A DNA stretch of 46,860 bases from Opitutus sp. GAS368 (GTDB taxonomy: Bacteria; Verrucomicrobiota; Verrucomicrobiia; Opitutales; Opitutaceae): positions 1 through 46,860 of the forward strand of contig CAMAVZ010000015.1 in NCBI GenBank assembly GCA_945861645.1, written 5' to 3'. Every line of letters begins with the position of its first letter. Within the stretch, counting starts at the first letter, position 1. Both the position numbers and the translations under genes were made by a program. This document shows, piece after piece, positions 4,709 to 38,630 of this stretch. A model generated the notes under the pieces. That model was not told where the DNA came from. It saw only the letters and a list, made by a program, of their open reading frames with translations, and did no database searches.

Positions 4709-4770
4709 GAGTTGTTTCTCAATTCTCGAATAAAGGCTCTCATCCTCAGCGCCGGGGTATTGTTTAAAGT
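4709..4770 (+). promoter_or_regulatory. Tandem direct-repeat operator plus -10 upstream of CE7-GH1
   Basis: gagttgtttctcaat (4709-4723) and ataaaggctctcatc (4730-4744), 21 bp period; TAAAGT at 4765-4770. Confidence 0.6.
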
Positions 4771-4818
4771 GATCTTCGCGATGTCAGCTTTCGTTTATCT
4801 TTACGCTCAGGCCGTTCG

Positions 4819-6171
4819 ATGAGATCGCGCGTCTTTATGCTCATTGGTGGCGGGTTGATCGCGAGCACGGCTCTTTGGGCCGTGCAGGCAATCACCCCAG
4901 TGCCCCCGCAGGTGGACTTTCGGGTTGCTGCGATTCAGGTACGGGTGAAGCCAGAACATCGCGATTGGACGTACGCGCTGGGTGAGGCCGTCAAATTTCA
5001 GGTTATCGTTACCGCCGACAATGAACCGATCGATACGGTGGCAGTGCACTATACGGTGGGGCCGGATCTGCAGCCCGGACCAGCGAAGATGGCGCTAGTC
5101 CCTTTGACCGGTTTAATCATCGATGCGGGCACGATGACGGCGCCAGGTTTCTTGCGCTGCATCGTAACTACCGAAGTGGCCGGCACCATTTATTCTGGAG
5201 TGGCGACGGCCGCCATAGCGCCCGAAAAAATTGTCGCCTACCAAACTGAACCGCGCGATTTCGATGCCTTCTGGGCAGCAGGCCGAGCCGAGCTGGCGAA
5301 ACTTCCGCTCGAGGCCAGGCTCACGCTGCAGGCGGAGGCCTGTACGGATAAGGTGAATGTCTATCAGGTAAGTTTTCGCGGTCTCGGCGAGGGTTGGGCG
5401 GGTCCGGCGCGTATTTATGGAGTTCTCACGGAGCCCAAGGTGCCGGGGCATTATCCTGCTGTGCTGAAAGTGCCCGGAGCCGGCGTTCGGCCGTATTTCG
5501 GTGACACTCGCTTAGCGGCTCGGGGCGTGATCGTCTTGGAGATTGGCGTCCATGGAATTCCCGTCAATCAGCCGCAAGAAATTTATGATCAGTTGCAGGC
5601 CGGCGCGCTCAACGGGTACTGGCTGTTTAACTTAGATGATCGTTACAATTATTATTATCGGCGGATTTATTTGGGCTGTCTGCGGGCCAATGATTTTTTA
5701 ACAACGCGCGAAAACTGGGATGGGCAAAATTTGCTGGTCGTGGGGGCCAGCCAAGGCGGTCTGCTCGCCATCACCACTGCGGCGCTCGACGCACGCGTGA
5801 CGGGGCTAGCGGCCACGCATCCGGCCTTCTGTGATGTGGCGGCTCCACTGCATGGGCGAGCGGGCGGTTGGCCGCACCCTTTTATGCCTGATGCCCTAAC
5901 GGGCCAGCCCTCGCCGCAGGCCACGCCGGCGAAAATTGAAACGGCGCGATATTACGATGCGGTGAATTTCGCGCGCCGGCTGAAGGTGCCGGGCTTTTAT
6001 ATCTGGGGTTACAATGATGCGGTTTGCCCGCCGACTTCGACCTTCGCGGCCTATAATCTTATCACGGCACCCAAGCAACTGGCGGTCGAATTTGAACAGG
6101 CGCACACTTATCCGCCTGAACAGGATCAGGCCATCACTCGCTGGATTACCACTGCGCTTAGGCTCCGGTAA
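4819..6171 (+). CDS. Acetylxylan/acetyl esterase, CE7 (AXE1/cephalosporin-C deacetylase family), secreted, with N-terminal extra domain
   Basis: PRDFDAFW, YYYRRIYL, nucleophile GASQGG, YYDAVNFA, NDAVCPP (Asp), C-terminal His (QAHTY); hydrophobic N-terminus. Confidence 0.88.
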   Translation: MRSRVFMLIGGGLIASTALWAVQAITPVPPQVDFRVAAIQVRVKPEHRDWTYALGEAVKFQVIVTADNEPIDTVAVHYTVGPDLQPGPAKMALVPLTGLIIDAGTMTAPGFLRCIVTTEVAGTIYSGVATAAIAPEKIVAYQTEPRDFDAFWAAGRAELAKLPLEARLTLQAEACTDKVNVYQVSFRGLGEGWAGPARIYGVLTEPKVPGHYPAVLKVPGAGVRPYFGDTRLAARGVIVLEIGVHGIPVNQPQEIYDQLQAGALNGYWLFNLDDRYNYYYRRIYLGCLRANDFLTTRENWDGQNLLVVGASQGGLLAITTAALDARVTGLAATHPAFCDVAAPLHGRAGGWPHPFMPDALTGQPSPQATPAKIETARYYDAVNFARRLKVPGFYIWGYNDAVCPPTSTFAAYNLITAPKQLAVEFEQAHTYPPEQDQAITRWITTALRLR

Positions 6172-6198
6172 TTTTCCGGCGGCCCCGTTATTTTATTT

Positions 6199-7560
6199 AT
6201 GTCATTTCCGAAAAATTTCATATGGGGGGCTGGCTCATCCGCCTACCAAATCGAAGGCGGTTGGAATCTCGGTGGCCGGGGCCCTTCTATCTGGGACACA
6301 TTTTCGCAACAATCGGGTAAGGTATTCGAAAACCACAATGGGAATATCGCTTGTGACCATTACCATCGGTGGCGCGAGGATATTGGTCTGATGCGTGATC
6401 TGGGGCTGCAGGCTTATCGGTTGTCATTGGCTTGGCCGCGCATTCAGCCGATGGGAACGGGCCGAGCTAATGCCCGTGGGCTCGCCTTTTATGATCGGCT
6501 AATCGATCGATTGCTGGCGGCGGGCATCACGCCATGGGTAACGCTTTACCATTGGGATTTGCCGCAGGCGCTGCAGGAACGGGGCGGTTTTCTTAACCGC
6601 GATTTTGTCGATTGGTTTGGCGATTACACGGCGATCGTCGCAGATCGCCTAGGTGATCGCGTGAAGCATTGGCTGACGTTTAACGAGCCGCCCGTAATTA
6701 TAGGATTGGGTCATCAAGAAGGTCGCATGGCGCCCGGGTTGCAGTTGCCCTTCGCGGATTGTTTGCTGGGCGCGCATCATCTATTGATGGCTCACGGTCG
6801 ATCGGTCCAGGCGTTGCGCGCCGGTTGCTCCGGCCGCGTAAAGATTGCCATCGTACAGACGGGGCGCGAACGCATTCCGGCGACGAGCCACCGGCGGGAT
6901 ATTGCGGCGGCCCGGCAAGATTATTTTGCTAGCACCGAACGTACGATGCATAATCTAGCGTGGTGGGCGGATCCTGTCATGCTCGGTCGCTATCCAGAAG
7001 ATGGGGTTAAGGCTTTTGGGGCGGATATGCCAAAATTTACGGCAGCGGATATGAAGCTGATTGCCCAAAAGACTGACTTCATCGCCTATAATTGCTATTC
7101 GGGGTGGCCGGTGCGGGCCAATGCTCGTGGTAAGGCCGAGCGCGTTCCTGCTGGCTGGGGAATCGGCAACCCGCGGGGGACGCTGGCCTGGCTGGAGAGC
7201 GCCCCTGATGCGATTTATTGGGCGGCGCGTTTCCAGACGGAGCGTTACGCTCGGCCCATCGTTTTTTCTGAGAACGGAATTTGTAGCTCTGATTTTGTCC
7301 ATCTCGACGGTCGGGTGCACGATCCCCAGCGAATTGATTTTTTGCGCCGCTATCTCGGAGCGGTGCGGCGGGCGGTTGATGAGGGCATTCGGGTGGAGGG
7401 CTATTTCCATTGGTCGATTATGGATAATCTTGAATGGGCCGAGGGCTACAAAGACCGCTTCGGTTTGATCCATGTGGATTATCGCACGCAGCAGCGCACC
7501 CTGAAAGATTCCGCTTACTGGTATCGTGATTTTATCCGCTCGGGTGGCCGGATGGGCTAA
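6199..7560 (+). CDS. Glycoside hydrolase family 1 beta-glucosidase (no signal peptide)
   Basis: FPKNFIWG...AYQIEG, ACDHYHRW, TLYHWDLP, acid/base TFNEP, nucleophile FSENG, WSIMDNLEWAEGY. Confidence 0.95.
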   Translation: MSFPKNFIWGAGSSAYQIEGGWNLGGRGPSIWDTFSQQSGKVFENHNGNIACDHYHRWREDIGLMRDLGLQAYRLSLAWPRIQPMGTGRANARGLAFYDRLIDRLLAAGITPWVTLYHWDLPQALQERGGFLNRDFVDWFGDYTAIVADRLGDRVKHWLTFNEPPVIIGLGHQEGRMAPGLQLPFADCLLGAHHLLMAHGRSVQALRAGCSGRVKIAIVQTGRERIPATSHRRDIAAARQDYFASTERTMHNLAWWADPVMLGRYPEDGVKAFGADMPKFTAADMKLIAQKTDFIAYNCYSGWPVRANARGKAERVPAGWGIGNPRGTLAWLESAPDAIYWAARFQTERYARPIVFSENGICSSDFVHLDGRVHDPQRIDFLRRYLGAVRRAVDEGIRVEGYFHWSIMDNLEWAEGYKDRFGLIHVDYRTQQRTLKDSAYWYRDFIRSGGRMG

Positions 7561-7789
7561 GATCTTAGGGCTGTCAGCTGTGACTGGGTCTCTTGTTAGT
7601 TTTGAGGTTAGATTTTTTTGCGGCCGGCCGGTATAAAGGAAGATGGTTCAACTCATGACTGTTTGGTTGGCTTAATTATGGGTGCGACGTTGGGCGACTC
7701 TTCCCGTTGGTCTGACCGAAGCTACCGCTAGAGCGGCGGGGTCCCGTTCTTTGGCTGGCTCTGCTGCCTCAGGTCGGTTTCGAGCCGTC

Positions 7790-7852
7790 GTCTAAATACT
7801 CAAATCTTAAGCAAGGATTCTCATTAACATGAGAGGGAAAAATTGTTACACA
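7790..7852 (+). promoter_or_regulatory. Tandem direct-repeat operator plus extended -10 upstream of GH2-GPH operon
   Basis: gtctaaatactcaaa (7790-7804) and gcaaggattctcatt (7811-7825), 21 bp period; TGtTACACA at 7844-7852. Confidence 0.55.
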
Positions 7853-7956
7853 GTGGTTATCTAGCCTAGGCCTACCCCATCCTTGATCAGCGCGCATGAC
7901 TATTTTGCCGCCGCTAAATTTACGCTCATTTTTAATTCTGACCCAGGCTTGTCATC

Positions 7957-10434
7957 GTGTCATCGCTCTCTCTCACAAATATTCCTTGGCAGTTTCGCGA
8001 AGTCGCCCCGCGCGCCAGCTGGCATCCTGCCGTGGTCCCGGGTTGCGTGCATACGGATCTGCAGAAGCAGGGCCTCATTCCGGAGCCATTCTGGGAGAAT
8101 AACGAAGCGGGCCTGCAGTGGATTGAAGAGCGCGATTGGGAATATCGGACCACTTTTACGGTGTCGCGGGAATGGCTCGCGGCGGAAGTGGTCGAGCTGG
8201 TTGCCGATGGTCTCGATACCGTGGCGACGGTCCGGCTCAATGGGCAAGAAGTGGCGCGCACGGCCAATATGTTTACGGGTTTCCGGTGGGTCGTGAAGCC
8301 CCTGCTCCGAGTGGGGCGCAATGTTTTGACGATACAGTTTGGCAGTGCGCTGAAATATATTCGCGCCACGCGCCGCGGCCATCGCCCCGTTGAGTTCAAC
8401 GATCCGGTCGGACGTTCGCAGGTTATTCGCAAGCAAGCCAGTCAGTTTGGGTGGGATTGGGGTCCGCGTTTTGTAACGGCGGGGATCTGGGCCGATCTTC
8501 GTTTGGAGGCTTGGACAGGTAATCGTTTGGCGGGAGTGCGGGTCACCCAGCAACATGCGGCGGATGGCAGTGTCACGCTGGCGCTCGGGTTAGAGTTAGC
8601 GCGGTCGGCGGCGCAGGCCTGTGCGGTTCGTTGGCGATTATCCCTCGGTGATTTGCTGATCGCGGAGGGGCGGCAGCTAACCATTCATTTGGCTAATCCG
8701 CAGCTCTGGTGGCCGAATGGCCAAGGGGCGCAATCGCTTTATACACTCGAAGTCGAGGTGCTGGGCGCCGCGGGGCGGCTGATCGGTCAGTGGAGCCGGC
8801 GGATTGGTTTGCGCACGATCCAGCTGGATCGGCACGCGGATGCCGCGGGAGAAACCTTTCAATTTGTCGTCAATGGGCGGCCCATTTTTGCCAAGGGCGC
8901 TAATTGGATTCCGGCGCATAGTTTTGTCACGGGCTTGACGCGCGAACATTATGCGCGGGATCTCCAAAGTGCGGCGGAGGCGCACATGAACATGATTCGG
9001 GTTTGGGGTGGGGGCATCTACGAGAGTGAGAAATTTTATGACGAGTGCGATCAGCTGGGGCTGCTGGTCTGGCAGGATTTTATGTTTGCCTGCTCGATTT
9101 ATCCGGCGGACCGAGCTTTTCAGAAAAGTGTGCGCGCGGAGGCCGTGCATCAAGTGCGCCGACTACGGCACCGCGCGTGCCTCGCCCTCTGGTGCGGCAA
9201 CAACGAAATTGAGTCGCTCAATGCCCCCTTGTTGAAAGAACCCTCGCGCCGCCGTGAATACGATGCGCTCTTTCACCAATTGTTGCCCGCCGTGGTTGCA
9301 CAGCATGATGCCGTCACTGATTATTGGCCCTCCTCGCCCCATCGGGGGGGGCAGGATGATAGTCACGCGATCGGGGTGCAACGTGGAGACACTCATTTTT
9401 GGGATGTCTGGCACAAGCGCCAGCCGGTGAAAGATTATGAGCAATGGCGGTTCCGTTTTGTTTCTGAATTTGGCATGCAAAGTTATAGTTCGCCCGAAAC
9501 GCAGGCTACTTTCTGTTCGGCGGAGCACGGGAATATATTCGGCCGGCAGATGGAAAATCACCAAAAGAACCGCGGCGGCAATCAAGTCATTCTCGATTAT
9601 GTGTCCCGCCGTTATCGGTTTCCAAAATCGCAGGCCGACCTGATCTATCTTTCGCAGTTAAATCAGGCGTACTGCATGCAGACTGGCGTGGAGCATTATC
9701 GGCGGACGATGCCGCATTGCATGGGGGCGCTTTACTGGCAATTGAACGACTGTTGGCCTACGGCTTCGTGGAGCTCGCTGGAATTCACGGGTCGGTGGCG
9801 CGCTTTGCATCATGCGGCGCGGCGTTTTTTTGCGCCCGCGCTCGCCTGTGCCCACATGCCGGGGGAGGAGACGACAACTATTGGGAACTATCCGCGTTCC
9901 ACGATCGATGTGGTGCATCTGTACACTGTGAGTGACCTGCCGGGCACTGTGCCCGGCGTCCTCCGCTGGGACCTTTTATCGCTCGATGGTCGCACCCTCC
10001 AGCAGGGGCGCAAGCAGGTGAAGCTAAGCTATGGGACCAGCGTTAAGCAGAAGACGCTCCGGCTGGCTGCCGCCCTCGCGCGGCATGGTCGGGATCGGGT
10101 GATTCTGCGCATCGCCCTCGATTTGGCTGGTCGCCGAGTCAGCGAGGAAAGCTTGTTTTTCTCGCCGCCTCGGTTCTTAGATCTCCCGGTGGGCCGCACA
10201 AAAATTGCTTTGCAATTACCGACTCCCCACCGGGCGCGGCTCACGATCACGTCGGCTGTTTTTCAGCATCGCTTTAAGTTCGAGCTCCCTGGCATTGGGC
10301 ACCGCAGCAGCGATAATTATTTTGAGCTTTATCCCCACGAGGCCCGGGTGGTGGAGCTGGAATTCACCCGCCCCCAGACGCTCACTCGGTTGAAAAAAAC
10401 TCTTACCTATCAATCGCTCCGCGATACCTACTGA
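7957..10434 (+). CDS. Glycoside hydrolase family 2 beta-mannosidase (no signal peptide)
   Basis: RKQASQFGWDWGP, KGANWIP, NMIRVWGGGIYE, WQDFMFAC, WCGNNE, FVSEFGMQS, LYWQLNDCWP are beta-mannosidase signatures; GTG start approximate. Confidence 0.92.
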   Translation: MSSLSLTNIPWQFREVAPRASWHPAVVPGCVHTDLQKQGLIPEPFWENNEAGLQWIEERDWEYRTTFTVSREWLAAEVVELVADGLDTVATVRLNGQEVARTANMFTGFRWVVKPLLRVGRNVLTIQFGSALKYIRATRRGHRPVEFNDPVGRSQVIRKQASQFGWDWGPRFVTAGIWADLRLEAWTGNRLAGVRVTQQHAADGSVTLALGLELARSAAQACAVRWRLSLGDLLIAEGRQLTIHLANPQLWWPNGQGAQSLYTLEVEVLGAAGRLIGQWSRRIGLRTIQLDRHADAAGETFQFVVNGRPIFAKGANWIPAHSFVTGLTREHYARDLQSAAEAHMNMIRVWGGGIYESEKFYDECDQLGLLVWQDFMFACSIYPADRAFQKSVRAEAVHQVRRLRHRACLALWCGNNEIESLNAPLLKEPSRRREYDALFHQLLPAVVAQHDAVTDYWPSSPHRGGQDDSHAIGVQRGDTHFWDVWHKRQPVKDYEQWRFRFVSEFGMQSYSSPETQATFCSAEHGNIFGRQMENHQKNRGGNQVILDYVSRRYRFPKSQADLIYLSQLNQAYCMQTGVEHYRRTMPHCMGALYWQLNDCWPTASWSSLEFTGRWRALHHAARRFFAPALACAHMPGEETTTIGNYPRSTIDVVHLYTVSDLPGTVPGVLRWDLLSLDGRTLQQGRKQVKLSYGTSVKQKTLRLAAALARHGRDRVILRIALDLAGRRVSEESLFFSPPRFLDLPVGRTKIALQLPTPHRARLTITSAVFQHRFKFELPGIGHRSSDNYFELYPHEARVVELEFTRPQTLTRLKKTLTYQSLRDTY

Positions 10435-10471
10435 GAGGGGCTGTGGCCTCCTGCTTTTATACCCCGACCCC

Positions 10472-11887
10472 ATGATAACTAAAGATGCTAAGCTCCCCTT
10501 TCGTGAAATGCTCGCCTTTGGCTGCGGCGATTTCGCTTCCGTGCTGTATTGGCAAACGTTCATGCGGTATTTGCCTTTTTATTATACCGATATTTTTGGC
10601 CTCACCGCGGGTGCGTTGGCGACGATGCTGTTGGTGAGTCGCATTTGGGATGGGGTGAATGACCCCATCATTGGGCTGCTCGCTGATCGCACCGAGACGC
10701 GCTGGGGAAAATTTCGTCCCTTTATTTTATTCGGGTGTGTGCCGTTTGCAATTTTCGGAGTCTTAACTTTTACCACGCCCGCTTTTGGCCCGGCCGGTAA
10801 GCTCATTTGGGCCTATCTTACTTACAACGCGCTGATGATGCTCTATACGACCGTGAACATTCCTTATAGCGCGTTGATGGGGGTGATGACGAGCGATCCG
10901 ACTGAGCGCACGCGACTCTCGTCAATTAAGTTTATTTTTGCCTTCACCGCGGGCATGGTAATCTCGGCGACGCTTTTGCCTATGGTGCGGGCCCTGGGAG
11001 GCGACCACAACCCGCAACTCGGCTGGCAGTTGGCCTTCGGCCTCGTGGGCGTCGTGGCCGTGGGATTTTTTCTGATCACAGTTTTCGGCACGAAGGAACG
11101 TATCAAGCCGGCGGTGGAGGAAAACACTTCGGTGCTGCGAGATTTGCGTTACCTCGTGGGCAATCGAGCTTGGGTGCTCCTGCTTTGCACGACCCTGACT
11201 TGGATTCTCTTCATCGCCCTACGCAGTTCCGTCTCCACCCACTACTTCAAATATTATCTCTACAACGGCTTGCCCGAAACGCAGCTGCCTTTTCTGGGGC
11301 AGAGCTTTACCCTCGATGGGCTGGTTTCGACCTTTAATACCCTCGGTCAAGCGGCTTCGGTGGCAGGGGTGGTGCTGCTCAGTTTAGTGGCCGCCAAGTT
11401 TCCCAAGAAGCTTATCTTTGTGACCCTGTTTATTCTGCAGATTGGTTGTACGGCCGCCTATTTATTTCTGGCGCCCGGTCAGCTCGGAGCAATTTTCACC
11501 TTGGAAATTATCGGCAGTTTCTTGGGGGCGCCCTTGCCGGTGTTAATGTGGGCCATGTATGCCGATACAGCTGATTATGGTGAATGGCAGAGCGGGCGCC
11601 GCACGACGGGGCTCGTCTTCTCGGCCTCGACGATGAGCCAAAAATTTGGTTGGGCCCTCGGGGCCTTCCTCGCCTTCCAATCGTTGCATTGGGTGGGTTT
11701 TATCGCCAACGAGATTCCCACGCTGGCGGTTAAGAGCAGTTTAGTCCGGCTGATGAGCATTTATCCCGCCGCGTTGGGCGTGCTCTCCATTGTGATTTTC
11801 CTATTCTATCCCCTTAGCGAAAAGCGTATGGCGGTGATCAATGACGAGCTGAAACAGCGCCGGACTGGTCTCACGGAGGTAGCTTAA
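10472..11887 (+). CDS. Glycoside-pentoside-hexuronide (GPH) family sugar:cation symporter (MFS_2)
   Basis: FGCGDFAS, DGVNDPIIG..ADRTETRWGKFRP, NIPYSAL, ADTADYGEW..GRR; about 12 hydrophobic segments. Confidence 0.93.
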   Translation: MITKDAKLPFREMLAFGCGDFASVLYWQTFMRYLPFYYTDIFGLTAGALATMLLVSRIWDGVNDPIIGLLADRTETRWGKFRPFILFGCVPFAIFGVLTFTTPAFGPAGKLIWAYLTYNALMMLYTTVNIPYSALMGVMTSDPTERTRLSSIKFIFAFTAGMVISATLLPMVRALGGDHNPQLGWQLAFGLVGVVAVGFFLITVFGTKERIKPAVEENTSVLRDLRYLVGNRAWVLLLCTTLTWILFIALRSSVSTHYFKYYLYNGLPETQLPFLGQSFTLDGLVSTFNTLGQAASVAGVVLLSLVAAKFPKKLIFVTLFILQIGCTAAYLFLAPGQLGAIFTLEIIGSFLGAPLPVLMWAMYADTADYGEWQSGRRTTGLVFSASTMSQKFGWALGAFLAFQSLHWVGFIANEIPTLAVKSSLVRLMSIYPAALGVLSIVIFLFYPLSEKRMAVINDELKQRRTGLTEVA

Positions 11888-11952
11888 AGCGCCGCGCGGC
11901 AGCGGATTTTGACCAAGCTTGCTTGTTTTGAGGGAACTGACAATTTTTCACT

Positions 11953-13143
11953 ATGCGACCTGAGGTCCTGCTTATTTTCCTAACTCGCTTCGAGGAGAGC
12001 TTGGGGATGTTAAAAGGCATTGCTCATTATGAGCGTACGCACCAGGTCTGGACCGCTTTTCACGATGAACAGGCGCGGGCAGAAATGGACCCGCACTGGT
12101 TGCGCAGTCGGCAATGGAACGGGGTGATCAGTCGGCACACCACCCCTGCGCTCGTGAAGGCCTGCGCTCAGCGAAAAATACCGCTCGTCGATTTAAACGA
12201 CATCAAGATTTATCCGGGCGTCCCCAAGATTCGCCCCGATAACGTCGCGTTAGGCCATCTGGGCGCGGAGCATTTCCTGGAGCGGGGCCACGTAAATTTT
12301 GGCTATAGCGGATTTTCGAGCGAGCTTTGGTCGGCTGAGCGACGCGATGGGTTTCTTGAGGCGCTGCATTTGGCGGGGCGAAACTGCGCGCTCCATGATG
12401 TGAATTATCCCGGCGACCTGAATCCGATCTGGGATCCGGCGCAGATCGACGCGCTCACCGCTTGGCTAAAGGCCCTCCCTAAGCCGGTCGCCATAATGGC
12501 CTGTAATGATATGCGCGCGCAGCAGATTGTGACGGCCGCGACGCTAAATGGGATGATGGTGCCTGAGGAGGTCGCGATCTTGGGGGTGAACAACGACCCG
12601 ATTCGCTGCGAATTATCCTATCCGCCACTGTCGAGTGTGGCGCCTAACGCTTTTCAGTCGGGCTATCACGCTGCCGAGGTGCTGGCGGAGATGCTGGCGG
12701 GGCGGAAGCCCAAGAATTATGATCAGCGCATAGAGCCGCTGGGGGTAATCACGCGGGCGTCAAGTGATGCGCTGGCGATCAATGATCGGCACGTCGCGGC
12801 CGCGCTCAATTTTATCCGCAAAAATGCCTGTCTGGGGCTGAAAGTGGAGGCTTTAAGTAAACCAGCTTTTGCTTCTCGGAGTCAGCTGGAGAAAAAGTTT
12901 CGTCAATATCTGGGCCGTTCCCCGCAAGCTGAGATTCGGCGCGTGCAAGTGGCCAAAATTCGCCAGCTGCTGATCGAAACTGATTTTCCCCTTAAAAAAA
13001 TTGCTGACCTCACCGGCTTTGAGCACGTGGAGTATATGTGTGTTTTATTCAAGCGGGTGACGGGTAGTTCGCCGGGTTTATATCGCAAAAATAATCAGGC
13101 GACCTTCGCTCAATTTAGCGAAGAACGAGGCGCCACTGGGTAG
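11953..13143 (+). CDS. xylR: XylR-type transcriptional regulator (LacI-like ligand-binding domain plus C-terminal AraC HTH)
   Basis: KPVAIMACND, VPEEVAILGVNND..CELSYPPLSSV, then SRSQLEKKF..YLGRSP and IADLTGF...FKRVTGSSP; symbol is family-level only. Confidence 0.88.
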   Translation: MRPEVLLIFLTRFEESLGMLKGIAHYERTHQVWTAFHDEQARAEMDPHWLRSRQWNGVISRHTTPALVKACAQRKIPLVDLNDIKIYPGVPKIRPDNVALGHLGAEHFLERGHVNFGYSGFSSELWSAERRDGFLEALHLAGRNCALHDVNYPGDLNPIWDPAQIDALTAWLKALPKPVAIMACNDMRAQQIVTAATLNGMMVPEEVAILGVNNDPIRCELSYPPLSSVAPNAFQSGYHAAEVLAEMLAGRKPKNYDQRIEPLGVITRASSDALAINDRHVAAALNFIRKNACLGLKVEALSKPAFASRSQLEKKFRQYLGRSPQAEIRRVQVAKIRQLLIETDFPLKKIADLTGFEHVEYMCVLFKRVTGSSPGLYRKNNQATFAQFSEERGATG

Positions 13144-13153
13144 AGGCGGCGCG

Positions 13154-13250
13154 GCAACCATTCTCAATTTTGCTGAGATAGGTTGCGGCAATGATTCTCA
13201 ATGCTTCTGCAATTGAACTCATTCCCTTGCCGGAGGGTTTGCCCTATAAA
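13154..13250 (+). promoter_or_regulatory. Three direct repeats plus -10 upstream of the TonB-dependent receptor
   Basis: gcaaccattctcaat (13154-13168), gcaatgattctcaat (13188-13202), gcaattgaactcatt (13209-13223); last two 21 bp apart; TATAAA at 13245-13250. Confidence 0.65.
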
Positions 13251-13339
13251 GGTGCTGTATGCTGTGGAAACCCCTTAGCCTACACGCTGGGCTGCTTTCA
13301 GTTCAGTTTACCTCCGCTAGCCTAACCACCCCTAATAAT

Positions 13340-16300
13340 ATGAATAGTCTTAATTCGCGACTGCGAGCCTTGCTGCTCACTTCCGCTCTGGGTCTCATGA
13401 CGGTGGGACACCTGACCGCGCAAACCACGGCTAAGCCCGTGGCCCCTAAATTAGATGACGATGAAGCCATCGTGCTTTCGCCCTTCGTGGTCAGCGCCGC
13501 GGAAGACGCTGGCTATACGGCAAAAAATACTTTGGCCGGAACGCGCGTGCGGACTGAGTTGAAGGATGTGGGCTCGGCCATTTCCGTGGTCACGGCAAAA
13601 TTTCTCCAAGATACTAATTCAAAGAACTCCGCCGATCTGTTAGTTTACACCACGGGCACCGAAGTAGCGGGTCAAGGGGGTAACTTTGCCGGCGGTGGTG
13701 ATGGGGCGATTATCGCCGACGGCTCCTATGTGAAGCCGGTCGCCAATACCCGCGTCCGCGGGTTGGCCGCGGCCGATAATCTTCGCGATTTTTTCCTAAC
13801 CGATATTCCTTGGGACTCCTATAATGTGGGTCGTGTCGATTTACAGCGCGGGCCCAATTCGATCCTGTTCGGTATTGGTTCTCCCGCGGGCGTGATTAAC
13901 AGCAGCGTCAATACCGCTAGCCTTAAGAACGCCAACAAGGTGGAAGTGCAAATTTCGGACCTCGGTTCAATTCGCGGCACGCTCGATCTCAACAAGGTAA
14001 TCATTAAAAATGAGCTCGCGATTCGCATTTCCGCTTTACAGGACAACACTAAATTCAAGCAGGAGCCGGCCTATAAGGACGACAAGCGCATGTACGGCGC
14101 GCTGCGTTGGGAGCCCAAAGCTTTCGCTAAGAACGGTGCGCATACTTCCTTCCGTGCGAATTACGAGTCGGGTGATATTAAGGGCATCAATCCTCGCTAC
14201 GCCCCGCCCATCGACGCAATCACGCCGTGGTTTGCGAACATGAACAAGGCTACGTATAACTGGCAGGACTCTAACCAATTGACGGACCGTACGAGCGCTC
14301 GCTTTAGCCCTTACGTGGGCGCAGCTGGTCAGCGTATCTGGGACGGCAACGTGGTAACATTTACAGATCCAGCGAGTACCTCCCAGAGCGGTGCGTTTAG
14401 TGCGACCGCCCAAAACTACCCGCTCAATCAGCCGGGCGCGAACAACAATACGACCAACGGTAGTTATAAGGGCATTGTAACCTATAATCAAATCGCGATG
14501 GGGCTGCGTTTGCCCGGTTACGCCATCAACCCGTACAAGGCTAAGTCCCTCACGGATGCTTCAGTATTCGATTTCTATAATCATCTCATCGAGGGTGAGA
14601 ATCGCAGCAATACCAGCAACTTTAAGGCGCATAACCTGACGCTTAACCAAACCTTCATGGACAACAAACTCGGTTTCGAGTTGGCCTATGATAAGCAGGA
14701 CACAAAGTGGGGTTATCGGAACTTTCTTGCTTGGGATGCTGCGGCAATTTCGGTGGATATCATGAACACCTTTATGGATGGTTCAGCTAATCCAAACGTA
14801 GGCCGCGCGATGGTTATCGGTGGCGGTGGATCGGCCGGCAGCGGCAGCACCCACCGTATTCGTGAATCGGTACGGGGAACCGCTTTCGGCGAGTTTGATT
14901 TCAAGGATGTGCTCAGCGAGCAGAACCTGCTGGCGCGTATTCTGGGCCGCCATGTCTTGACCTGGAGTGGAGCGAGGCAAGCTAATGACTCCACCAACCT
15001 TGGTTGGAACAACTGGTTCGTGGGCACCGGTTATGGCCCCACCGCGATGTCCTCCGTGGGGCAATCCTCCCGCGATGCAACCACAATCACTTATCTCTCG
15101 CCGAAGTTGACCGGTTCTTCTGCGTCAGGGCTTAACCTCTCGCCTATCACGGCGCGGCAGCAGGCCGCCAGCACGACAGTTAAGCAATGGGACACGGTCT
15201 CGAAGAGCTTCACGAACTATGCTCTCCCGATTGTGAATCCGAATGCTGATACCTACACTGAGGCTACTCGGCCGTATACGCAGGTCAGCATATCGCGGGA
15301 CGAGATCAATTCCCAAGTCTTCGTTTGGCAGGGCTACCTCTTCGACGGCGCCTTGGTGCCAATGGTTGGTTGGCGCCGGGATGTCGCTGAAAACTTTGAT
15401 GCGGGTTCCCCCAATAAAGTGGGTGGCTTGGTCACCAATTTCGCCGATCCACTTTACCGAATTCCCACGGGCCAGGCTGAAGCCGGCAGCGGTAAATATA
15501 AAGAGCGCTTGTACAGCATCGTCACTGGCACGACTCATACGAGCAGTCTAGTGGCGCACCTCCCGAAGCGGTTCAGCAAGAATCTTCCTTGGGGTTTAGA
15601 TGCGAGCGTCTTCACGAGCTCATCAGCTAACTTTCAGCCTGATGCTTCCCGTAAGGACATCATTGGCGGTCGGATTCCTTCGCCGAGTGGTGATACCAAG
15701 GATTACGGTTTCGTGGTCTCAGCCTTGGAAGGAAAAATCGCGCTCAAGGTTAATCGTTACCATACGACCGTGGCTAATGCGACCCTCTCGGGTGAACTCG
15801 GCAATGCCTACCTGATTGGTGCCGGCGAGGCTTGGGGTAACGTGCACGCCAAGCGGCTCGCCCGCGGCGATGCTGGTGACAGCTCCGCTATCTGGGATAA
15901 TTTCGGCACCACCTCAGCAGCCTCCGCTTATGGTGCTGGGAAAATCGTCCAGTGGCAACCTGCCGACTCCGGCTTAAAAGACCCGTCGAAAGGCTATGAT
16001 TCGGGGACCAACCCCTACACCCAAGCTGCCTTGGATGCGCAGTACTCAATCCAACGCAAGTCGGTCGATACCTGGAATGCTAATCCAATTCCGCTCTCGA
16101 TGCAGGTTGCTTGGGGTATGACTGATTATGCTACCGGCGGCGGCAGTTGGAGCATGAACAGTGTAGCCGTCACCGGTGACACCGACTCGCGTGGTACGGA
16201 ATTTGAGCTCGCGATTAATCCAATCAAGGGGCTCGACGTTTCTATCAATGCCTCCAAGACGGACGCTAAGCGTCTCAATATTGGTAAAGCTTACTCGGAC

Positions 16301-16849: not shown

Positions 16850-16893
16850 GTGATTAAATAAATCCTGCTGAATTTTTCAGTGGTTTGAATTCC

Positions 16894-19884: not shown

Positions 19885-19887
19885 AAT

Positions 19888-29774: not shown

Positions 29775-29837
29775 AGGTTAAGAGAGCGTCGCCCGACCGA
29801 CTATGAGAAATTCATTTTTTAAAATGAGATTTCTTGC
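29775..29837 (-). promoter_or_regulatory. Tandem direct-repeat operator plus -10 upstream of the multidomain gene
   Basis: Minus strand: gcaagaaatctcatt (29837-29823) and aatgaatttctcata (29816-29802), 21 bp period; TAACCT (29780-29775). Confidence 0.55.
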
Positions 29838-29920: not shown

Positions 29921-31192
29921 ATGAAGCTCTGTTTTATTATTATTTCACTTTTGAGTGGGCTCCTCAATGGCGCTTGGGCGGCGGGGGACAACCCCGTGCT
30001 CTACTGGAACGAACAAGCGCTGAACGCCACCCGTCTGGCGCGCAATCCGCCGCCGATTGCTTCAGCGTATTATGCGACTTACCACGCGGCGATCTTTGAT
30101 GCGGTGAACGGCATCACCAGCACGCACCGCGGATGGTTGGTGCAAGCATCTGCGCCGACGGGGGCTAATCCGGCCGCGGCGATCGCTAGCGCTAGCTTTG
30201 CCGTTCTGAATGCGCTTTGGGGTCAGGCGGCTAATCCCCGCAACTTTCAGCTCGCTTATGATCATGCGCTCGAGGCGATCCCAGATGGCCCGGGCAAAGA
30301 AAATGGCCTCGCTTGGGGTCGGCAAGTGGCCGCACTGATTTTAGCTAATCGCGCCCAGAGTGGTTTCGACCGGCCTAGGCCTGGCCAATACGCGAGCACG
30401 GAACCGGGCTTATGGCGCGAAACGCCGCCGGGATTTCGTCCGCCCGTATTGCCCTATTGGGGCAAGGTTACCCCTTTCGTGCTCACCTCCCCGGCGCAAT
30501 TTCGCGCGCCGCCGCCGCCGTTATTAACGTCCCAGTCGTACGCCGATGAATTGGCCCAGATCAGTCGTATCGGCGGGCGGGATGGGGCTGAGCGCACTGA
30601 ATATGAGACGCTCAGTCCAGCTTTTTGGGCTGACGATCTGGGCACGGCCACGCCGCCAGGGCACTGGAATGTAATCGCGCAGGATCTCGCTCGGCGGAAT
30701 CAATTATCGACGGAGGCAACCGCGCGCTTGTTTGCGCTCTTAAATCTAGCGACCGCGGATGCGGCGATCGCTTGCTGGGAGACCAAATATTTCTATCGCA
30801 CTTGGCGACCCGAGACCGCCATCCGCGAACTTGATGCAGTGCTCAATCCCTTCGTGCGGCCGCAGCCCAATTTTATTCCGCTCATGGTGACGCCGGCGTT
30901 CCCAGGCTATGTCTCGGGGCACAGCACATTTTCAGCTGCCGCCGCACAGATTCTAACGCACTTCTTTGGTACCGATGATATAGAATTTACGGTCACCTCA
31001 GAAGGGCTGCCCGGCGCCGTGCGTTCCTTTAAACAACTTTCCGCCTGTCGCGATGAGATCGGTCGCAGTCGGCTATTCGGCGGAATTCATGTGCGTTCAG
31101 ATGATGCGGCCGGCCAGGCCATGGGTATAAAAATAGGCGATTGGGTGTTCGCGTATGCGTTGCTTCCTAACCCCACCCCTCGGAGGCCTTGA
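29921..31192 (+). CDS. Secreted vanadium-dependent haloperoxidase / PAP2 superfamily protein
   Basis: Signal peptide; KYFYRTWRP (K-x6-RP), PAFPGYVSGHS, SRLFGGIH. Confidence 0.85.
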   Translation: MKLCFIIISLLSGLLNGAWAAGDNPVLYWNEQALNATRLARNPPPIASAYYATYHAAIFDAVNGITSTHRGWLVQASAPTGANPAAAIASASFAVLNALWGQAANPRNFQLAYDHALEAIPDGPGKENGLAWGRQVAALILANRAQSGFDRPRPGQYASTEPGLWRETPPGFRPPVLPYWGKVTPFVLTSPAQFRAPPPPLLTSQSYADELAQISRIGGRDGAERTEYETLSPAFWADDLGTATPPGHWNVIAQDLARRNQLSTEATARLFALLNLATADAAIACWETKYFYRTWRPETAIRELDAVLNPFVRPQPNFIPLMVTPAFPGYVSGHSTFSAAAAQILTHFFGTDDIEFTVTSEGLPGAVRSFKQLSACRDEIGRSRLFGGIHVRSDDAAGQAMGIKIGDWVFAYALLPNPTPRRP

Positions 31193-31196
31193 ACTG

Positions 31197-34100
31197 ATGC
31201 GTGCGGCGCTTTTCATGGTAGGAGGAATCAGCCTGACGGTCAGCCTTTGGGCAGCTAATTTTTCGGCGTCTCTTTTACCGGCTCGCTCGCTCGCTCCGAC
31301 GGGGAGCAGGCTTTTTACCGTACTCTCGCCGACCGAGACCGGCGTGAACGGGTCCAACGTTTTCAACGACCCCCGCATGTGGGGCGCGCGCTTTCGCGAA
31401 CTCACGTTAGGCGCGGTAGAGACCGGCGTTGCCGTCGCGGACTTCGATCGCGACGGCCGGCCGGATATTTTTTCTGTTTCGAAAAATGGCCCGTGCGCGC
31501 TTTATCGGCAGATCGCGCCCTTCGAATTTACCGACGTTGCGGCGACTGCCGGTGTGACTGCGGCTGAGCCGGGCGCCAGCAAAACCGGAGCCACGGTGGT
31601 GGACCTGAACCAAGATGGCTGGCCTGACATCTACGTCTGTCGCTACGACGCCCCGAATCTATTATTTATCAATAATCATGACGGTACCTTCACCGAGAGC
31701 GCCAAAGTCTACGGGCTCGATATCAAGGACGCGTCCGTCCACGCCGTTTTTGCCGACTACGACCGCGATGGGTATCTGGACTGCTATCTTGTCACCAACA
31801 TTCTTGATTTTTCCCAGGCGCCGCAGGGCCGGCGCGACTACCTGCTCCGCAACAATGGCAACAACACCTTCACCGATGTCTCCAAGGCGGCGGGCATCTG
31901 GGGTCTGACGCAGGGCCACACGGCGCTCTGGTTCGATTGTAATCACGACGGCTGGCCGGACCTCTATGTTGCTAATGATTTCGAAACGCCTGACCGGCTC
32001 TATCTTAATAATGGTAATGGCACCTTCACTGATGTGGTCGATGAGCGCCTGCCGCATGTAACCTATTTCTCTATGGGCGCCGATGCCGGCGATCTGAATA
32101 ACGATGGCCTCATTGATTTTTTTATCACTGACATGCGCGACCGCCACCACGCGGAGTTCATGACCGGCATGGAAGAAATTGGGCGCGGTCTCTGGGAGAG
32201 CGAACGGCCGACTGCACTTATCCCGCAATACATGTGGAACGCGGTTTACCTCAATACCGGCACCGACCGCTTCGCTGAAGTGGCACATCTCACCGGGATG
32301 GAAGCGACCGGCTGGACCTGGTCGGCCCGGCTCGGCGACCTAGACAACGACGGCCGCCTCGATGTTTTTGTGACCGCCGGGATGATTCGTAACTTCATCG
32401 ATGCTGATCTGGTCGATAAACAGAACATCGCGCCGAATCTGGCGGCGCGGGCCGGCGTGTGGAAAAACGCCCAACCGCGGCACGAAACCACACTCGCCTA
32501 CCGCAATCTCGGTGATCTGAGATTTGCCAACGTTTCCGCTGAGTGGGGCCTCGACCACAACGGCGTCAGTTTTGGCTGCGCCGAGGTCGACCTCGACGGT
32601 GACGGCGACCTGGATCTGGTCTTCGCCAACTACAACGAGCCGCCCACGGTCGTCCGCAACAATACCATCGGCGGGCACCGCGTGGTGATCAAGCTCGCTG
32701 GCCGCGCGCCCAATTTAGACGGGATCGGGGCGGAACTGCAGATCGAGACAGCTTCCGGCCGGCAAGTGCGGCAACTCTTTACCGAGCGCGGCATCGTTGC
32801 CAGCGAACCACCCCTCGTCCACTTTGGCCTCGGCGACGACACCACCATCAAGCAACTCACCATTCGCTGGCCGCGCGGCCAGATACAGGTGCTGGAAAAT
32901 ATCCCGGCTGACCAGATGCTCACGATTGCCGAGCCGCCGCTGGCCACGGCAACAAAACCGGCGCCGGCTAGCTTCCGAACTCCCGCGCGCCCGGACGCTT
33001 TATTTACCGAGTCCGCCGCCGGGCTTGGGCTCAAGCATACCAGCCAGTTGAGTCCCTTAGACGAGTTCACGCGCCAGCGCCTTCTGCCGCGTCGCTTGAA
33101 CGGTTTGGGCCCGGTGCTGGCGACGGCCGACGTAAACGGGGATGGCCTCGCCGATCTTTTCGTTTCCGGTGCGGCCAGACAGTCCGGTGAACTCTTCCTC
33201 GGCCAGTCCGACGGTCGCTTTTTAGCCGCGCCCCATCAGCCATGGGCTGAGGCTGCCGAAGCGGATGATGTTGGCGCGGTGTTTCTCGACGTGAACGGTG
33301 ACGGACATCCCGACCTGTTCATCGCGGCCGGCGGGGTGCGCAAGCTCTCGGGCGATGCCTTGCTCAACGACCGGCTTTACCTGAACGACGGCCACGGCCG
33401 CTTCACACTCGCTCCGGTTGGCACGCTGCCGCCCGATGGGGAGAGCACCGCGGCGACGGCGACCGCTGATTTCGATGGCGACGGCCGCGCGGATCTTTTT
33501 GTCGGTGGCCGGGTCGTCCCGGGAAAATACCCGGCGACGCCGCGCAGCTTTATTTACCACAATGTCGGCGGAAAATTAGTCGATGTGACCGACGAACTCG
33601 CCCCGGGCCTGCGCACCATCGGCATGGTAACGGCCGCGGTCTGGGCTGATGTGGATGGCGACCAGCGTCCTGATCTTATCCTCGCAATTGAGTGGGGTCC
33701 GATTTCCTACTGGCATAACACGGGTCATGGCTTCGAAAACCTTACGGGGACGGTCGGGCTTGCCGCCGTCACCGGTTGGTGGAGCGCGCTGACTGTGGCG
33801 GATGTTAACGGCGACGGCCGACCTGATTTCATCGCTGGCAATGTGGGCCTTAACACGAAGTACCACGCCAGTGCCGCTGAGCCGACGGTCCTCTTCGCTG
33901 GGGATTTCGACGGCCGCGGCAAGGAGCAGCTCGTCGAGGCGCAGTTTGAGGACGGCAAACTTTTTCCGGTGCGCGGCCGTAGCAAGCTGGCCTACGCCTT
34001 TCCGTGGCTACCGAAAAAGTTCCCCACGTATCAAGCCTACGCGCACGCGACGGTGGAGGATATTTTCGGGGCCAAGCCGCTTGCCGCTGTGCGCCAGTTG

Positions 34101-34532
34101 GCCGCCACAGAACTGGCCAGCGGGATCTTTCTCCAGCAGCCCGACGTTACCTTCCGGTTTCAGCCGCTGCCGCGACTCGCCCAAATCGCCCCGATCAATG
34201 CGATCGTAGCGCGCGATTTCGATGGGGATGGCTCGCTCGATCTTTTTTGTGTCGGCAATAATTTCGGACCCGAAGCGAACACCGGCCGTTTCGATGGGGG
34301 CCTAAGTGGGTTGCTGAAGGGGAACGGCCGCGGCCGCTTCACAGCGCTGATGCCTGCTCAGTCCGGCCTGAGTGTTGTGGGCGACGCCCGATCGGCGGTC
34401 GCGCTTGCTTTGCCCAGCGATAAGCGTCCAGCCATTGCCGTTGCTCGCTGTGACGGACCGGTGCTGCTGTTCACTCCGGCGAAGCCTGAACGCGGAATCG
34501 AGCCAGCTTTTTCTGCCCCCCTTAGGCAATGA
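31197..34532 (+). CDS. Second secreted ASPIC/UnbV (CRTAC1-like) FG-GAP/VCBS protein
   Basis: GGAGG then ATG 31197 (ORF track starts at 31155); signal peptide; many DxDxDG loops; ASEPPLVHFGLG...IRWPRG; collinear with 19888-23499. Confidence 0.88.
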   Translation: MRAALFMVGGISLTVSLWAANFSASLLPARSLAPTGSRLFTVLSPTETGVNGSNVFNDPRMWGARFRELTLGAVETGVAVADFDRDGRPDIFSVSKNGPCALYRQIAPFEFTDVAATAGVTAAEPGASKTGATVVDLNQDGWPDIYVCRYDAPNLLFINNHDGTFTESAKVYGLDIKDASVHAVFADYDRDGYLDCYLVTNILDFSQAPQGRRDYLLRNNGNNTFTDVSKAAGIWGLTQGHTALWFDCNHDGWPDLYVANDFETPDRLYLNNGNGTFTDVVDERLPHVTYFSMGADAGDLNNDGLIDFFITDMRDRHHAEFMTGMEEIGRGLWESERPTALIPQYMWNAVYLNTGTDRFAEVAHLTGMEATGWTWSARLGDLDNDGRLDVFVTAGMIRNFIDADLVDKQNIAPNLAARAGVWKNAQPRHETTLAYRNLGDLRFANVSAEWGLDHNGVSFGCAEVDLDGDGDLDLVFANYNEPPTVVRNNTIGGHRVVIKLAGRAPNLDGIGAELQIETASGRQVRQLFTERGIVASEPPLVHFGLGDDTTIKQLTIRWPRGQIQVLENIPADQMLTIAEPPLATATKPAPASFRTPARPDALFTESAAGLGLKHTSQLSPLDEFTRQRLLPRRLNGLGPVLATADVNGDGLADLFVSGAARQSGELFLGQSDGRFLAAPHQPWAEAAEADDVGAVFLDVNGDGHPDLFIAAGGVRKLSGDALLNDRLYLNDGHGRFTLAPVGTLPPDGESTAATATADFDGDGRADLFVGGRVVPGKYPATPRSFIYHNVGGKLVDVTDELAPGLRTIGMVTAAVWADVDGDQRPDLILAIEWGPISYWHNTGHGFENLTGTVGLAAVTGWWSALTVADVNGDGRPDFIAGNVGLNTKYHASAAEPTVLFAGDFDGRGKEQLVEAQFEDGKLFPVRGRSKLAYAFPWLPKKFPTYQAYAHATVEDIFGAKPLAAVRQLAATELASGIFLQQPDVTFRFQPLPRLAQIAPINAIVARDFDGDGSLDLFCVGNNFGPEANTGRFDGGLSGLLKGNGRGRFTALMPAQSGLSVVGDARSAVALALPSDKRPAIAVARCDGPVLLFTPAKPERGIEPAFSAPLRQ

Positions 34533-37216: not shown

Positions 37217-37254
37217 AGGGTAGGAAATTTTCGGGGCTAAAATTTAGGCGATAA

Positions 37255-38406
37255 TTATTTAGGCGCCTGGGGCGGAGCGGCCCCGCTTGGTAGCCCGGTG
37301 TGCGTCAGCGTCTCATAGTTGAGATTCCAAATGGCCCGCGGGGCACGCGGCCGGACTTGCTCGCTCAACAAGCGGCGGGTGTGGGGGAGGTCGACTCCCG
37401 CGCGGTTATGATAATGGTTATAGCCCACACTCCAGGTATCAAAACGATTGGGGCTGGGCCGCGGATCGCGGGCCACACCTTGCATTGAGTCACTCAAGAA
37501 TTGCTCCGCCAGTAACTCCATGGCGGCCGTATAGCGCGCTTGGTTTTCCGTGTAGAGATCGATCCCCTGATGCCAAGCGGTCTCGGCGGCGTGGAGGGCT
37601 GAACCCAGGCCATACTGCGCATGATGACCGTTGTCGCGGCAGGTTTCCTGCATTAGTCCATCGACCCACTTGAGGGGCTGGTGCCAGAATTTTTCTACAT
37701 CCCCGCCATCACCCTCAATGGGCTGGGGTCGGGGACCATCCGAGCTCAGATAGAAGTAGGCTGGGTTCCGGAGTTTCAAGCGCGCGATACCTTGGTGGAA
37801 CAAATGCTCGTCCTCATTGAAGACGGCGATGGCCATCATCGCATCGATTTGGGTCAGATCGACATTTCCGTTCCAACTGCTCGCCGTGGTCAGTTGCGGA
37901 TAAAAGGCGCGCCGAAACATAGCTTGCAGGTTCTTAATTTCGGTCGGGGTCCAGCCGGGATAAAGGCGCATGATTTCCGCCGCCGGCGCGAATACCGCGC
38001 CGATCCAGCCGGCCTGCAGCCGATCTTGCGGCGTACCGGTGGTGAAGGCCTGAAGATTACTCCACGAATTCAGGATGGCGATGGCGCTCCGGGCATAGGC
38101 CTCTTCGCCGGTGAGATACCACAGCAGCGCTTGGCTGTAGGCCGCGGCCGCGTCGTAGCGAGAGATGTTCGCATCCTCACTCTTGGAATCGATGTTGGTC
38201 AGCCCATGTGGGCCCATGTGCGCATAGTGGGAATTCTTGATTTGCTCGAGCTCTCCCTTCCACGGCTGCGCCCCGGCCTGAATCCTCGTCTTGATAAAAT
38301 CGAGTTCGGCTTGCGAGTTGAGCGCCCCAGGATGGATAAAATCGTGGGCGCTAGTCGCCGCGGCTCCCAGACTCAACGCCAACCATAAAGTGATTAAGGT
38401 TTTCAT
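37255..38406 (-). CDS. Secreted alginate-lyase-family (PF05426-like) protein
   Basis: Signal peptide from ATG 38406 (ORF track starts at 38478); [18 protein letters not shown]...[36 protein letters not shown]. Confidence 0.75.
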
Positions 38407-38568
38407 GATCTGATGGTGGCGCCGGACGCCGCGGTCGCGGACCTCGGAAAATGGCCAGTAGGCGTTACAGACGCACAAGAAGCAAATGACGCAGGTCGCA
38501 TTAATAGGGGAGAATTATGCAGCGGCTGTAGGCAGTCCGCGGTCTTTAGCGAGGTTGTCAATTGGACT

Positions 38569-38630
38569 AGTCGATTTCTCAAATTTCAGACAAGGGCTCT
38601 CATTCATGCGCGGGGCTATCATGTTATATT
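38569..38630 (+). promoter_or_regulatory. Tandem direct-repeat operator plus extended -10 upstream of the IorAB-like operon
   Basis: agtcgatttctcaaa (38569-38583) and acaagggctctcatt (38590-38604), 21 bp period; TGtTATATT at 38622-38630. Confidence 0.62.

Follow-up and report, generated by a model that had tools for sequence, protein, structure and literature searches.

Paired direct repeats at six promoters of an Opitutaceae contig: probable operators of a XylR-type regulator of mannan use

The window analyzed here is an entire contig of 46,860 nucleotides (CAMAVZ010000015.1; C15 in our numbering) from Opitutus sp. GAS368. Six of its promoters, spread over 34 kb, carry the same 37-bp element, two direct repeats with a CTCA core and a 21-bp period. 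We propose, with a probability of about 0.75, that one factor, most likely the XylR-type activator encoded at 11953-13143, uses these sites as its operators and drives a regulon for the use of (galacto)glucomannan. Three of the six, which we call the core, precede a CE7 esterase-GH1 pair, a GH2-symporter-regulator unit, and a TonB-dependent receptor gene. The other three precede an ASPIC/UnbV FG-GAP gene (ASPIC), a gene for a secreted protein of 570 amino acids (unk570), and a molybdo-iron-sulfur dehydrogenase operon (iorA). An earlier note on this DNA had proposed such a regulon. Its interpretation is partly supported: for the core most of it appears correct, for iorA and ASPIC it is plausible, and for unk570 it is uncertain.

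The paired-box motif in the genome and in relatives

The genome comprises 2.30 Mb in 116 contigs, is 84% complete, and has a G+C content of 57%. The earlier note had quoted six pairs of 15-mers, and all six were present, on the strand of the downstream gene and with a core-to-core distance of exactly 21 bp. The TA-initiated hexamers that it had listed indeed begin 23 or 24 nt past the second core (+23 or +24), and those of GH2, ASPIC, and iorA carry a canonical TGn upstream. The sites and hexamers are as follows.

4709-4745, plus strand: 37-bp putative operator upstream of CE7-GH1
4765-4770, plus strand: TAAAGT, -10-like hexamer (CE7), at +23; predicted start near 4777
7790-7826, plus strand: 37-bp putative operator upstream of the GH2-MFS-regulator unit
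7847-7852, plus strand: TACACA, -10-like hexamer (GH2), at +24, preceded by TGn
13188-13224, plus strand: 37-bp putative operator upstream of the TonB-dependent receptor gene, 45 bp past the regulator stop codon
13245-13250, plus strand: TATAAA, -10-like hexamer (receptor), at +24; predicted start near 13257
23566-23602, minus strand: 37-bp putative operator upstream of the ASPIC/UnbV FG-GAP gene (19888-23499); core of box 2, CTCC
23541-23546, minus strand: TATCTT, -10-like hexamer (ASPIC), at +23, preceded by TGn; predicted start near 23534
29801-29837, minus strand: operator-like pair upstream of unk570 (28053-29765), the weakest member
29775-29780, minus strand: TAACCT, -10-like hexamer (unk570), at +24
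38569-38605, plus strand: 37-bp putative operator upstream of iorA-iorB-DUF1349-SDR-AKR
38625-38630, plus strand: TATATT, -10-like hexamer (iorA), at +23, preceded by TGn

The exact pattern CTCA-N17-CTCA occurs eight times in the window, compared to 0.94 expected, and none of 100 shuffled sequences reached eight. Five of the matches are claimed promoters and three are intragenic (913 and 12336 on the minus strand and 41546 on the plus strand); the ASPIC site is not among the eight because its second box reads CTCC. Genome-wide, 136 CTCA pairs have a spacing of 21, compared to 117 and 121 at the neighboring multiples of three, 18 and 24. This excess is small and comes mostly from the window, which indicates a small regulon rather than a general promoter feature. 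Alignment of the 12 boxes showed that the half-site is bipartite, RYAA-N5-CTCA-W-T, with an RYAA-like block 9 nt before the invariant C-T-C-(A). Two such half-sites with a 21-bp period make up the 37-bp site, which abuts a weak -35 element.

We scored half-site pairs at the 21-bp spacing over 4,586,250 genome positions, leaving one promoter at a time out of the half-site matrix. Five sites ranked 6 to 8, just after the five training promoters (unk570 ranked 6), and ASPIC ranked 26. When both halves had to score at least 8, the genome held seven pairs at spacing 21, six of them in the window, versus 0 to 3 pairs at other spacings from 10 to 44 (training sites included). A full 41-nt matrix from the six sites had been overfitted, with a leave-one-out rank of 3197 for unk570; it was replaced by the half-site matrix and then by a matrix from relatives only.

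The relatives-only matrix was built from 75 unique sites, none identical to a window sequence, and is partly circular in that these sites were first picked with a window-trained matrix. We ran it over this genome, and five window sites took ranks 1 to 5 of 4.59 million: receptor (45.7), GH2 (33.5), iorA (29.7), CE7 (26.7), and ASPIC (24.1). The next best scores after these five, 16.8 and 12.1, were both on contig C1 in housekeeping contexts. The unk570 site came 16th. The only operator-like matches outside the window were C1:34968-35010 (minus strand; end of dnaE, before an RsmB-like gene; score, 16.8; cores CTCG and CTTA) and C1:48456-48492 (plus strand; upstream of an MBL-fold hydrolase gene; scores, 20.3 and 12.1; weak proximal box). 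Both have degenerate cores and are probably chance matches. We concluded that the motif is real and is nearly confined to this contig.

We then examined conservation. Named public relatives of the regulator gene belong to metagenome-assembled genomes (MAGs) and one isolate of the Opitutaceae (Verrucomicrobiota), labeled Oleiharenicola, Lacunisphaera, Didemnitutus, Nibricoccus, and Opitutus, and the DNA runs that contain the stretch are lake, freshwater, and drinking-water metagenomes. In 80 loci around regulator orthologues (1.30 Mb), 90 pairs scored at least 17 bits, our threshold, versus 2 in the reversed-sequence control. All 90 have the 21-bp spacing; the other spacings tried (the rest of 18 to 24, and 31, 32, and 42) gave 0 to 4 pairs each. 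The pairs lie on the strand of the regulator in 85 of 90 cases.

Orthologues of the window genes were located in these loci by tblastn; simple open reading frame calls were unreliable in the GC-richer relatives and were not used. Within the 400 bp upstream of the gene, a site was present for 11 of 12 receptor, 14 of 25 GH1, and 8 of 36 GH2 orthologues. None was found in that interval for CE7 (0 of 12), the symporter (0 of 15), the regulator (0 of 74), FG-GAP (0 of 4), TPR (0 of 10), the 1,203-aa ASPIC/UnbV gene (0 of 9), the 817-aa protein gene (0 of 5), or ASPIC1125 (0 of 5). In several loci without a GH2 site, one is present a gene earlier, upstream of a GH130 beta-1,4-mannooligosaccharide phosphorylase gene, and a GH27 alpha-galactosidase gene often follows GH1. 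Hence, conservation upstream of orthologues, a check suggested by the earlier note, holds for the receptor, GH1, and GH2/GH130. No GH130 gene was found in this genome (84% complete) with PF04041.

We also searched for a strict pattern, CTCA-N8-RYAA-N5-CTCAT with an exact match, in 41 genomes, of which 24 were of the same genus and 16 were of other genera. The pattern was present in 14 of 14 same-genus genomes with a regulator orthologue (at least 62% identity) and in 1 of 10 without one, a contrast that is supportive but overstates the support and is no statistical proof, since the genomes are kin. It occurred in 2 of 16 genomes of other genera, and the reversed pattern gave four matches over all 41 genomes. 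Six of the 10 orthologue-less genomes have only paralogues of 29 to 33% identity; five of these six lack the pattern, and G016 has a single match. The five closest relatives carry two to four strict-pattern sites each, mostly at receptor and GH1/GH130-GH2 promoters, and this genome has four, plus two variants (ASPIC and unk570).

Could the pairs be chance similarities, or remnants of a dispersed repeat or mobile element with no regulatory role? CTCA is short, and three of the eight exact window matches are intragenic. However, this reading is contradicted by the shuffle, leave-one-out, reversed-sequence, and spacing controls and by the pattern seen across dozens of species, in which the blocks are conserved, the linkers between them vary freely, and the distance to a conserved -10 element stays fixed. 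We consider this explanation extremely improbable.

Promoter layout and direction of control

Columns that the matrix does not score are conserved in 81 unique sites from relatives: C at +5 (70 of 81), T at +24 (68 of 81), A at +25 (69 of 81), and T at +29 (65 of 81). Together with the final TT of the half-site they read TTnnC, a 17-bp spacer, and a TAnnnT -10 element. Judged from these letters, the element is a sigma-70-type promoter whose poor -35 hexamer starts where the operator ends. Counting the hexamer as -12 to -7 places the operator at about -69 to -36. The earlier note had pointed out that AraC-domain activators often bind tandem direct repeats about two helical turns apart that abut -35, and the layout here, two direct repeats with a 21-bp period next to -35, does match that of AraC/XylR-type activators. 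A simple consensus sigma-70 scan called none of the four promoters in 4400-24000, consistent with dependence on an activator.

A second explanation is that the protein binds these sites but represses, or that it both activates and represses by AraC-like looping. AraC-family proteins are able to repress, dimers of E. coli XylR form DNA loops that join two operators according to the available part of PMC3561964, and here six operators lie within 34 kb, with additional upstream boxes at the receptor and iorA promoters. However, the operators reach no further than about -36, upstream of the region contacted by polymerase, so that the -10 element and the start are uncovered; the -35 hexamers are poor, and the sigma-70 scan missed all four promoters examined; and lake RNA libraries cover the receptor gene well, so that it is expressed in situ. 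Repression, alone or combined with activation, appears quite unlikely to us, and activation by the bound protein is the predicted outcome.

The additional boxes are a ATTCTCAAT copy at 13160-13168, 34 bp before box 1 of the receptor site, and a weaker GTTGTCAAT box (38548-38568), which precedes box 1 of the iorA site by exactly 21 bp and, paired with that box 1 (38548-38584), scores 18.3. No third box is conserved in the logo of the relatives' sites.

RNA records came from four lake and freshwater runs in three studies, in the form of contigs, which cannot define RNA ends or rank genes. Contigs over the receptor gene begin at 13274, 13314, 13379, and 13399, 17 to 142 nt past the predicted start, and end at 16734-16896. 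The RNA records listed include none in the stretch from 12618 to 13273, and three of the four runs have no depth at all over 12442-13107. These contigs give a weak hint of a start near 13257 and a stop at the terminator behind the gene. No RNA contig covers 17104-18435, and the FG-GAP gene, the TPR gene, and most of ASPIC (17104-23097) have almost no cover, which proves nothing.

The candidate regulator and its targets

The genes and other features at the core promoters and behind the iorA site are as follows.

4819-7560, plus strand: CE7 acetyl esterase and GH1 beta-glucosidase genes, 27 bp apart, likely one unit
7957-11887, plus strand: GH2 beta-mannosidase-like gene and GPH/MFS_2 sugar symporter gene
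11953-13143, plus strand: XylR-type regulator, 396 aa, with a LacI/GalR-like sensor domain and an AraC double helix-turn-helix (HTH); last gene in the GH2 unit
13259-16849, plus strand: TonB-dependent receptor (Pfam Plug)
16894-16922, plus strand: intrinsic terminator after the receptor gene, a 12-pair stem followed by a T run
38665-43882, plus strand: genes for a 2Fe-2S subunit, a molybdopterin subunit, a DUF1349 protein, a short-chain dehydrogenase, and an aldo/keto reductase, with gaps of 21 to 77 bp (Pfam, NCBIfam)

Residues 19-271 of the regulator match Pfam Peripla_BP_3 (E value, 5.3e-31) and Peripla_BP_1 (1.9e-14), and residues 303-379 match HTH_18 (1.9e-18) and HTH_AraC (9.5e-13). Its matches in the PDB include MarA, RamA, and the AraC DNA-binding domain. 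Against E. coli XylR (4FE4_A), residues 6-382 pair with residues 9-388 in a full-length, collinear alignment (E value, 1.6e-42). By this architecture the protein classes as XylR-type, which does not make it a xylose regulator: no xylose isomerase or xylulokinase gene was seen at any operator. Since the targets are mannan genes and a TonB-dependent receptor gene, not xylose genes, the effector is probably not xylose.

Might a different protein bind the sites, with the adjacent regulator acting elsewhere? We found seven AraC-HTH genes in the genome, the regulator included. Candidates would be another member of that family, the second of the two XylR-type genes found (C3:87253-88377; 32% identical), or a factor absent from an assembly that is 84% complete. 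However, the motif tracks the orthologue of the adjacent regulator and is missing from most paralogue-only genomes. In 45 of 76 orthologous loci, a site follows the 3' end of the regulator gene at a distance of 22 to 298 bp, and the operator layout is the same as that reported for E. coli XylR in the available part of PMC3561964. We regard another binder as unlikely. The earlier note had held that the local XylR-type protein activates all six promoters; for the core this is supported by the XylR homology, the layout, and the co-occurrence with the regulator, and it is weakened for the peripheral targets, which are not conserved.

We propose the following mechanism for the XylR-type protein. 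Within a half-site, the two blocks are separated by about one helical turn, which would fit one AraC-type domain with two HTH motifs; two subunits would then sit next to each other on the same face of the DNA. The proximal half-site would end at about -36, its trailing TT opening a weak -35-like TTnnC, followed by a spacer of 16 to 17 bp and the TAnnnT -10 element. Loaded with a mannan-derived sugar, the regulator would recruit RNA polymerase to these otherwise poor promoters from a site abutting -35, as AraC does at araI and XylR at xylA and xylF. The conserved core of the regulon would be the uptake and breakdown of (galacto)glucomannan, comprising the TonB-dependent receptor, CE7-GH1, and GH2 with the GPH symporter and the regulator. 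Because the regulator gene is last in the GH2 unit, positive autoregulation is predicted. In relatives the regulon would add GH130 and GH27, and this lineage would have gained the ASPIC/UnbV FG-GAP protein, the molybdo-iron-sulfur dehydrogenase operon, and, less surely, the unk570 protein.

The core genes are consistent with this proposal. CE7 and GH1 match Pfam AXE1 (2.5e-41) and Glyco_hydro_1 (1.8e-143), with an NCBIfam GH1 beta-glucosidase hit above the cut-off; the GH2 gene and the symporter match Glyco_hydro_2_N2, Mannosidase_ig, Ig_mannosidase, and MFS_2, with the NCBIfam GPH symporter family TIGR00792 above the cut-off. The link to mannan that the earlier note had drawn is reasonable, given that the conserved targets are GH1, GH2, GH130, GH27, CE7, the GPH symporter, and the TonB receptor. 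The receptor site is also present in loci L002-L013 of relatives. Alignments (tblastn) of the receptor to orthologues begin at residues 13 to 28, and its true start is probably the Met at 13340, ahead of a signal peptide.

At CE7-GH1 the position of the site differs between genomes. Here and in G020, the closest relative (regulator 80% identical), it lies ahead of CE7 (L112 in G020), with CE7 and GH1 27 bp apart; in several relatives it lies between the two genes and faces GH1 (L106 of G013, and L040). Either the operator or the gene order must have shifted. The order receptor-FG-GAP-TPR (window, 13259-19884) recurs in L049, L057, L066, L070, L071, and L081; yet in this genome the strong terminator lies between the receptor and FG-GAP genes.

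Several findings weigh against the proposal, in addition to the kinship of the genomes and the circularity of the relatives-only matrix. There are six AraC-HTH genes besides the regulator in an incomplete genome, so that further regulators or sites may be unassembled. The GH2 hexamer TACACA lacks the final T. No ASPIC site was found upstream of 9 tblastn-located orthologues or in 29 ASPIC loci, and one low-depth RNA contig (23331-23562) crosses the predicted ASPIC start. Among iorA-type loci, a site is present in 1 of 29 (that of G020) and in 0 of the 28 others. For unk570, homologues (at most 49% identity) have a site in 0 of 18 loci (best score, 8.3), the relatives-only score is 8.0, and transcription is predicted to start about 3 nt ahead of the annotated ATG, leaving almost no leader.

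These absences raise the possibility that the operator is real but only the core is regulated, with one or more of the ASPIC, unk570, and iorA sites being look-alikes of little or no effect. The case is strongest at unk570, whose proximal box begins AATG instead of RYAA. However, iorA and ASPIC rank high under a matrix blind to them, and all three sites are intergenic, face their gene, and have a TA hexamer at +23 or +24. In G020 the iorA site is kept before iorA-iorB orthologues of 86 to 88% identity, with a correctly spaced TGnTATAGT (L105/L152). One syntenic ASPIC orthologue, divergent from the orthologue of the 817-aa protein gene, has an exact-pattern site (G013, L113). The expected number of chance sites with the score of unk570 in the intergenic DNA of the window is about 0.014, as estimated from 10 non-site matches. 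We consider such look-alikes less likely than not, but they represent the most serious of the alternatives. We read the iorA and ASPIC sites as what look like recent, lineage-specific recruits, and unk570 as the least secure member of the predicted regulon. The suggestion in the earlier note that the unexplained genes are tied to glycan use is accordingly graded: it is plausible for iorA and ASPIC and uncertain for unk570, and none of the three is broadly conserved.

Neither unk570 nor the 817-aa protein has a significant match in Pfam or NCBIfam; unk570 gave only subthreshold hints (PA14, E value of 0.037; TonB_C, 0.17). Its operator-like region is partly palindromic (TCATTTT-AAAA-AATGA) and lies in a very A/T-rich spacer, which could reflect a different or additional binding mode. 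The start of the 2Fe-2S subunit was set at 38665, and orthologues align from residues 1 to 8.

By Pfam, the contig encodes GH5 (minus strand); CE7 and GH1; GH2 with beta-mannosidase-type Ig domains; the GPH/MFS_2 symporter; the 396-aa regulator; the 1,196-aa TonB-dependent receptor followed by an FG-GAP protein and a TPR protein; and the 1,203-aa ASPIC/UnbV FG-GAP protein (minus strand). There follow the 817-aa membrane protein, a DUF255 protein, the 570-aa protein of no family (minus strand), PAP2, a second ASPIC/UnbV protein, GFO, MFS_1, and alginate-lyase-like genes (minus strand), the 2Fe-2S and molybdopterin dehydrogenase subunits, DUF1349, SDR, AKR, and GH92. A general scan gave no SusD-family Pfam match among 26 window proteins, and no dedicated search was made; the receptor gene instead precedes the FG-GAP and TPR genes.

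The ASPIC/UnbV FG-GAP family (window, 19888-23499 and 31155-34532) is strongly expanded in the genus, with up to 13 matches per genome at an E value of 1e-90 or better. It was found in 15 of the 24 same-genus genomes, namely, the 14 that carry a regulator orthologue and G014. The 817-aa protein (23708-26161) reads as a multipass membrane protein with a long soluble C-terminal part, and several relatives have its gene and the ASPIC gene as a divergent pair.

Relation to known systems and meaning

At araI1-araI2 of araBAD, AraC binds two half-sites that are direct repeats with a period of 21 bp; the proximal half-site overlaps or abuts -35, and each half-site is read by both HTH motifs of one subunit. 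The AraC sensor is of the cupin type, not the LacI/GalR type, and AraC forms a repression loop to the distant O2 site. This loop has no demonstrated counterpart at the Opitutaceae operators.

A close parallel is E. coli XylR (PDB 4FE4/4FE7), with its IA and IF operators at xylAB and xylFGH. Its operators are about 37 bp long, consist of two direct repeats, and adjoin the -35 element of a sigma-70 promoter, as described in the available part of PMC3561964. That protein shares the domain architecture of the Opitutaceae regulator and is a sugar-dependent activator of transport and catabolic genes beside its own gene; for the Opitutaceae protein such activation is predicted. The two differ in the half-site, which is RYAA-N5-CTCAWT here and an A-rich gaAa-a-a-AAT in the E. 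coli protein according to the same part of that paper. They also differ in their targets, which are mannan genes and a TonB-dependent receptor gene here but xylose isomerase and kinase genes and an ABC transporter in E. coli. E. coli XylR has two divergent operators, compared to six over 34 kb here, where the system is known from Verrucomicrobiota MAG sequence alone.

A Vibrio XylR homologue, XylRA, was found to bind direct-repeat motifs of this kind at five promoters of a beta-1,3-xylan locus that encodes hydrolases and transporters, with the motif derived by cross-genome comparison (PMC12125979, available part). Binding of XylRA was demonstrated by electrophoretic mobility shift assay and its affinity for xylose by isothermal titration calorimetry; its motif is AT-rich and E. 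coli-like, its substrate is xylan and not mannan, and the available part of that paper describes no TonB-dependent receptor among its targets. Our literature searches on Verrucomicrobiota transcription factor regulons, including mannan or TonB-dependent regulation in Opitutaceae, turned up nothing of this kind.

We place the system in the XylR/AraC direct-repeat activator class as a new member that is well delimited and most likely governs the use of (galacto)glucomannan in freshwater Opitutaceae. A bolder idea, which we hold only tentatively and think improbable as a whole, is that in this Opitutaceae lineage a mannan-sensing XylR-type activator has recruited three gene sets with no known role in glycan use: the ASPIC/UnbV beta-propeller protein, the secreted 570-aa protein, and the 2Fe-2S/molybdopterin-DUF1349-SDR-AKR operon. 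If this is true, the TonB-dependent receptors of SusD-less Verrucomicrobia would have ASPIC/UnbV and FG-GAP/TPR proteins as their partners at the surface, and the dehydrogenase operon would be an oxidative branch of mannan-sugar catabolism.

The regulon is of a known and fairly ordinary type, and the mechanism itself is textbook; the value of the finding lies in annotation and experimental design, not in a new principle. It provides an operator model, a candidate regulator, and a testable class of inducer for abundant freshwater Opitutaceae. It would place SusD-less TonB receptor genes under a classical AraC/XylR-type switch, offer a regulatory handle on the large, uncharacterized ASPIC/UnbV family, and tie several genes of unknown function to the use of plant mannan.

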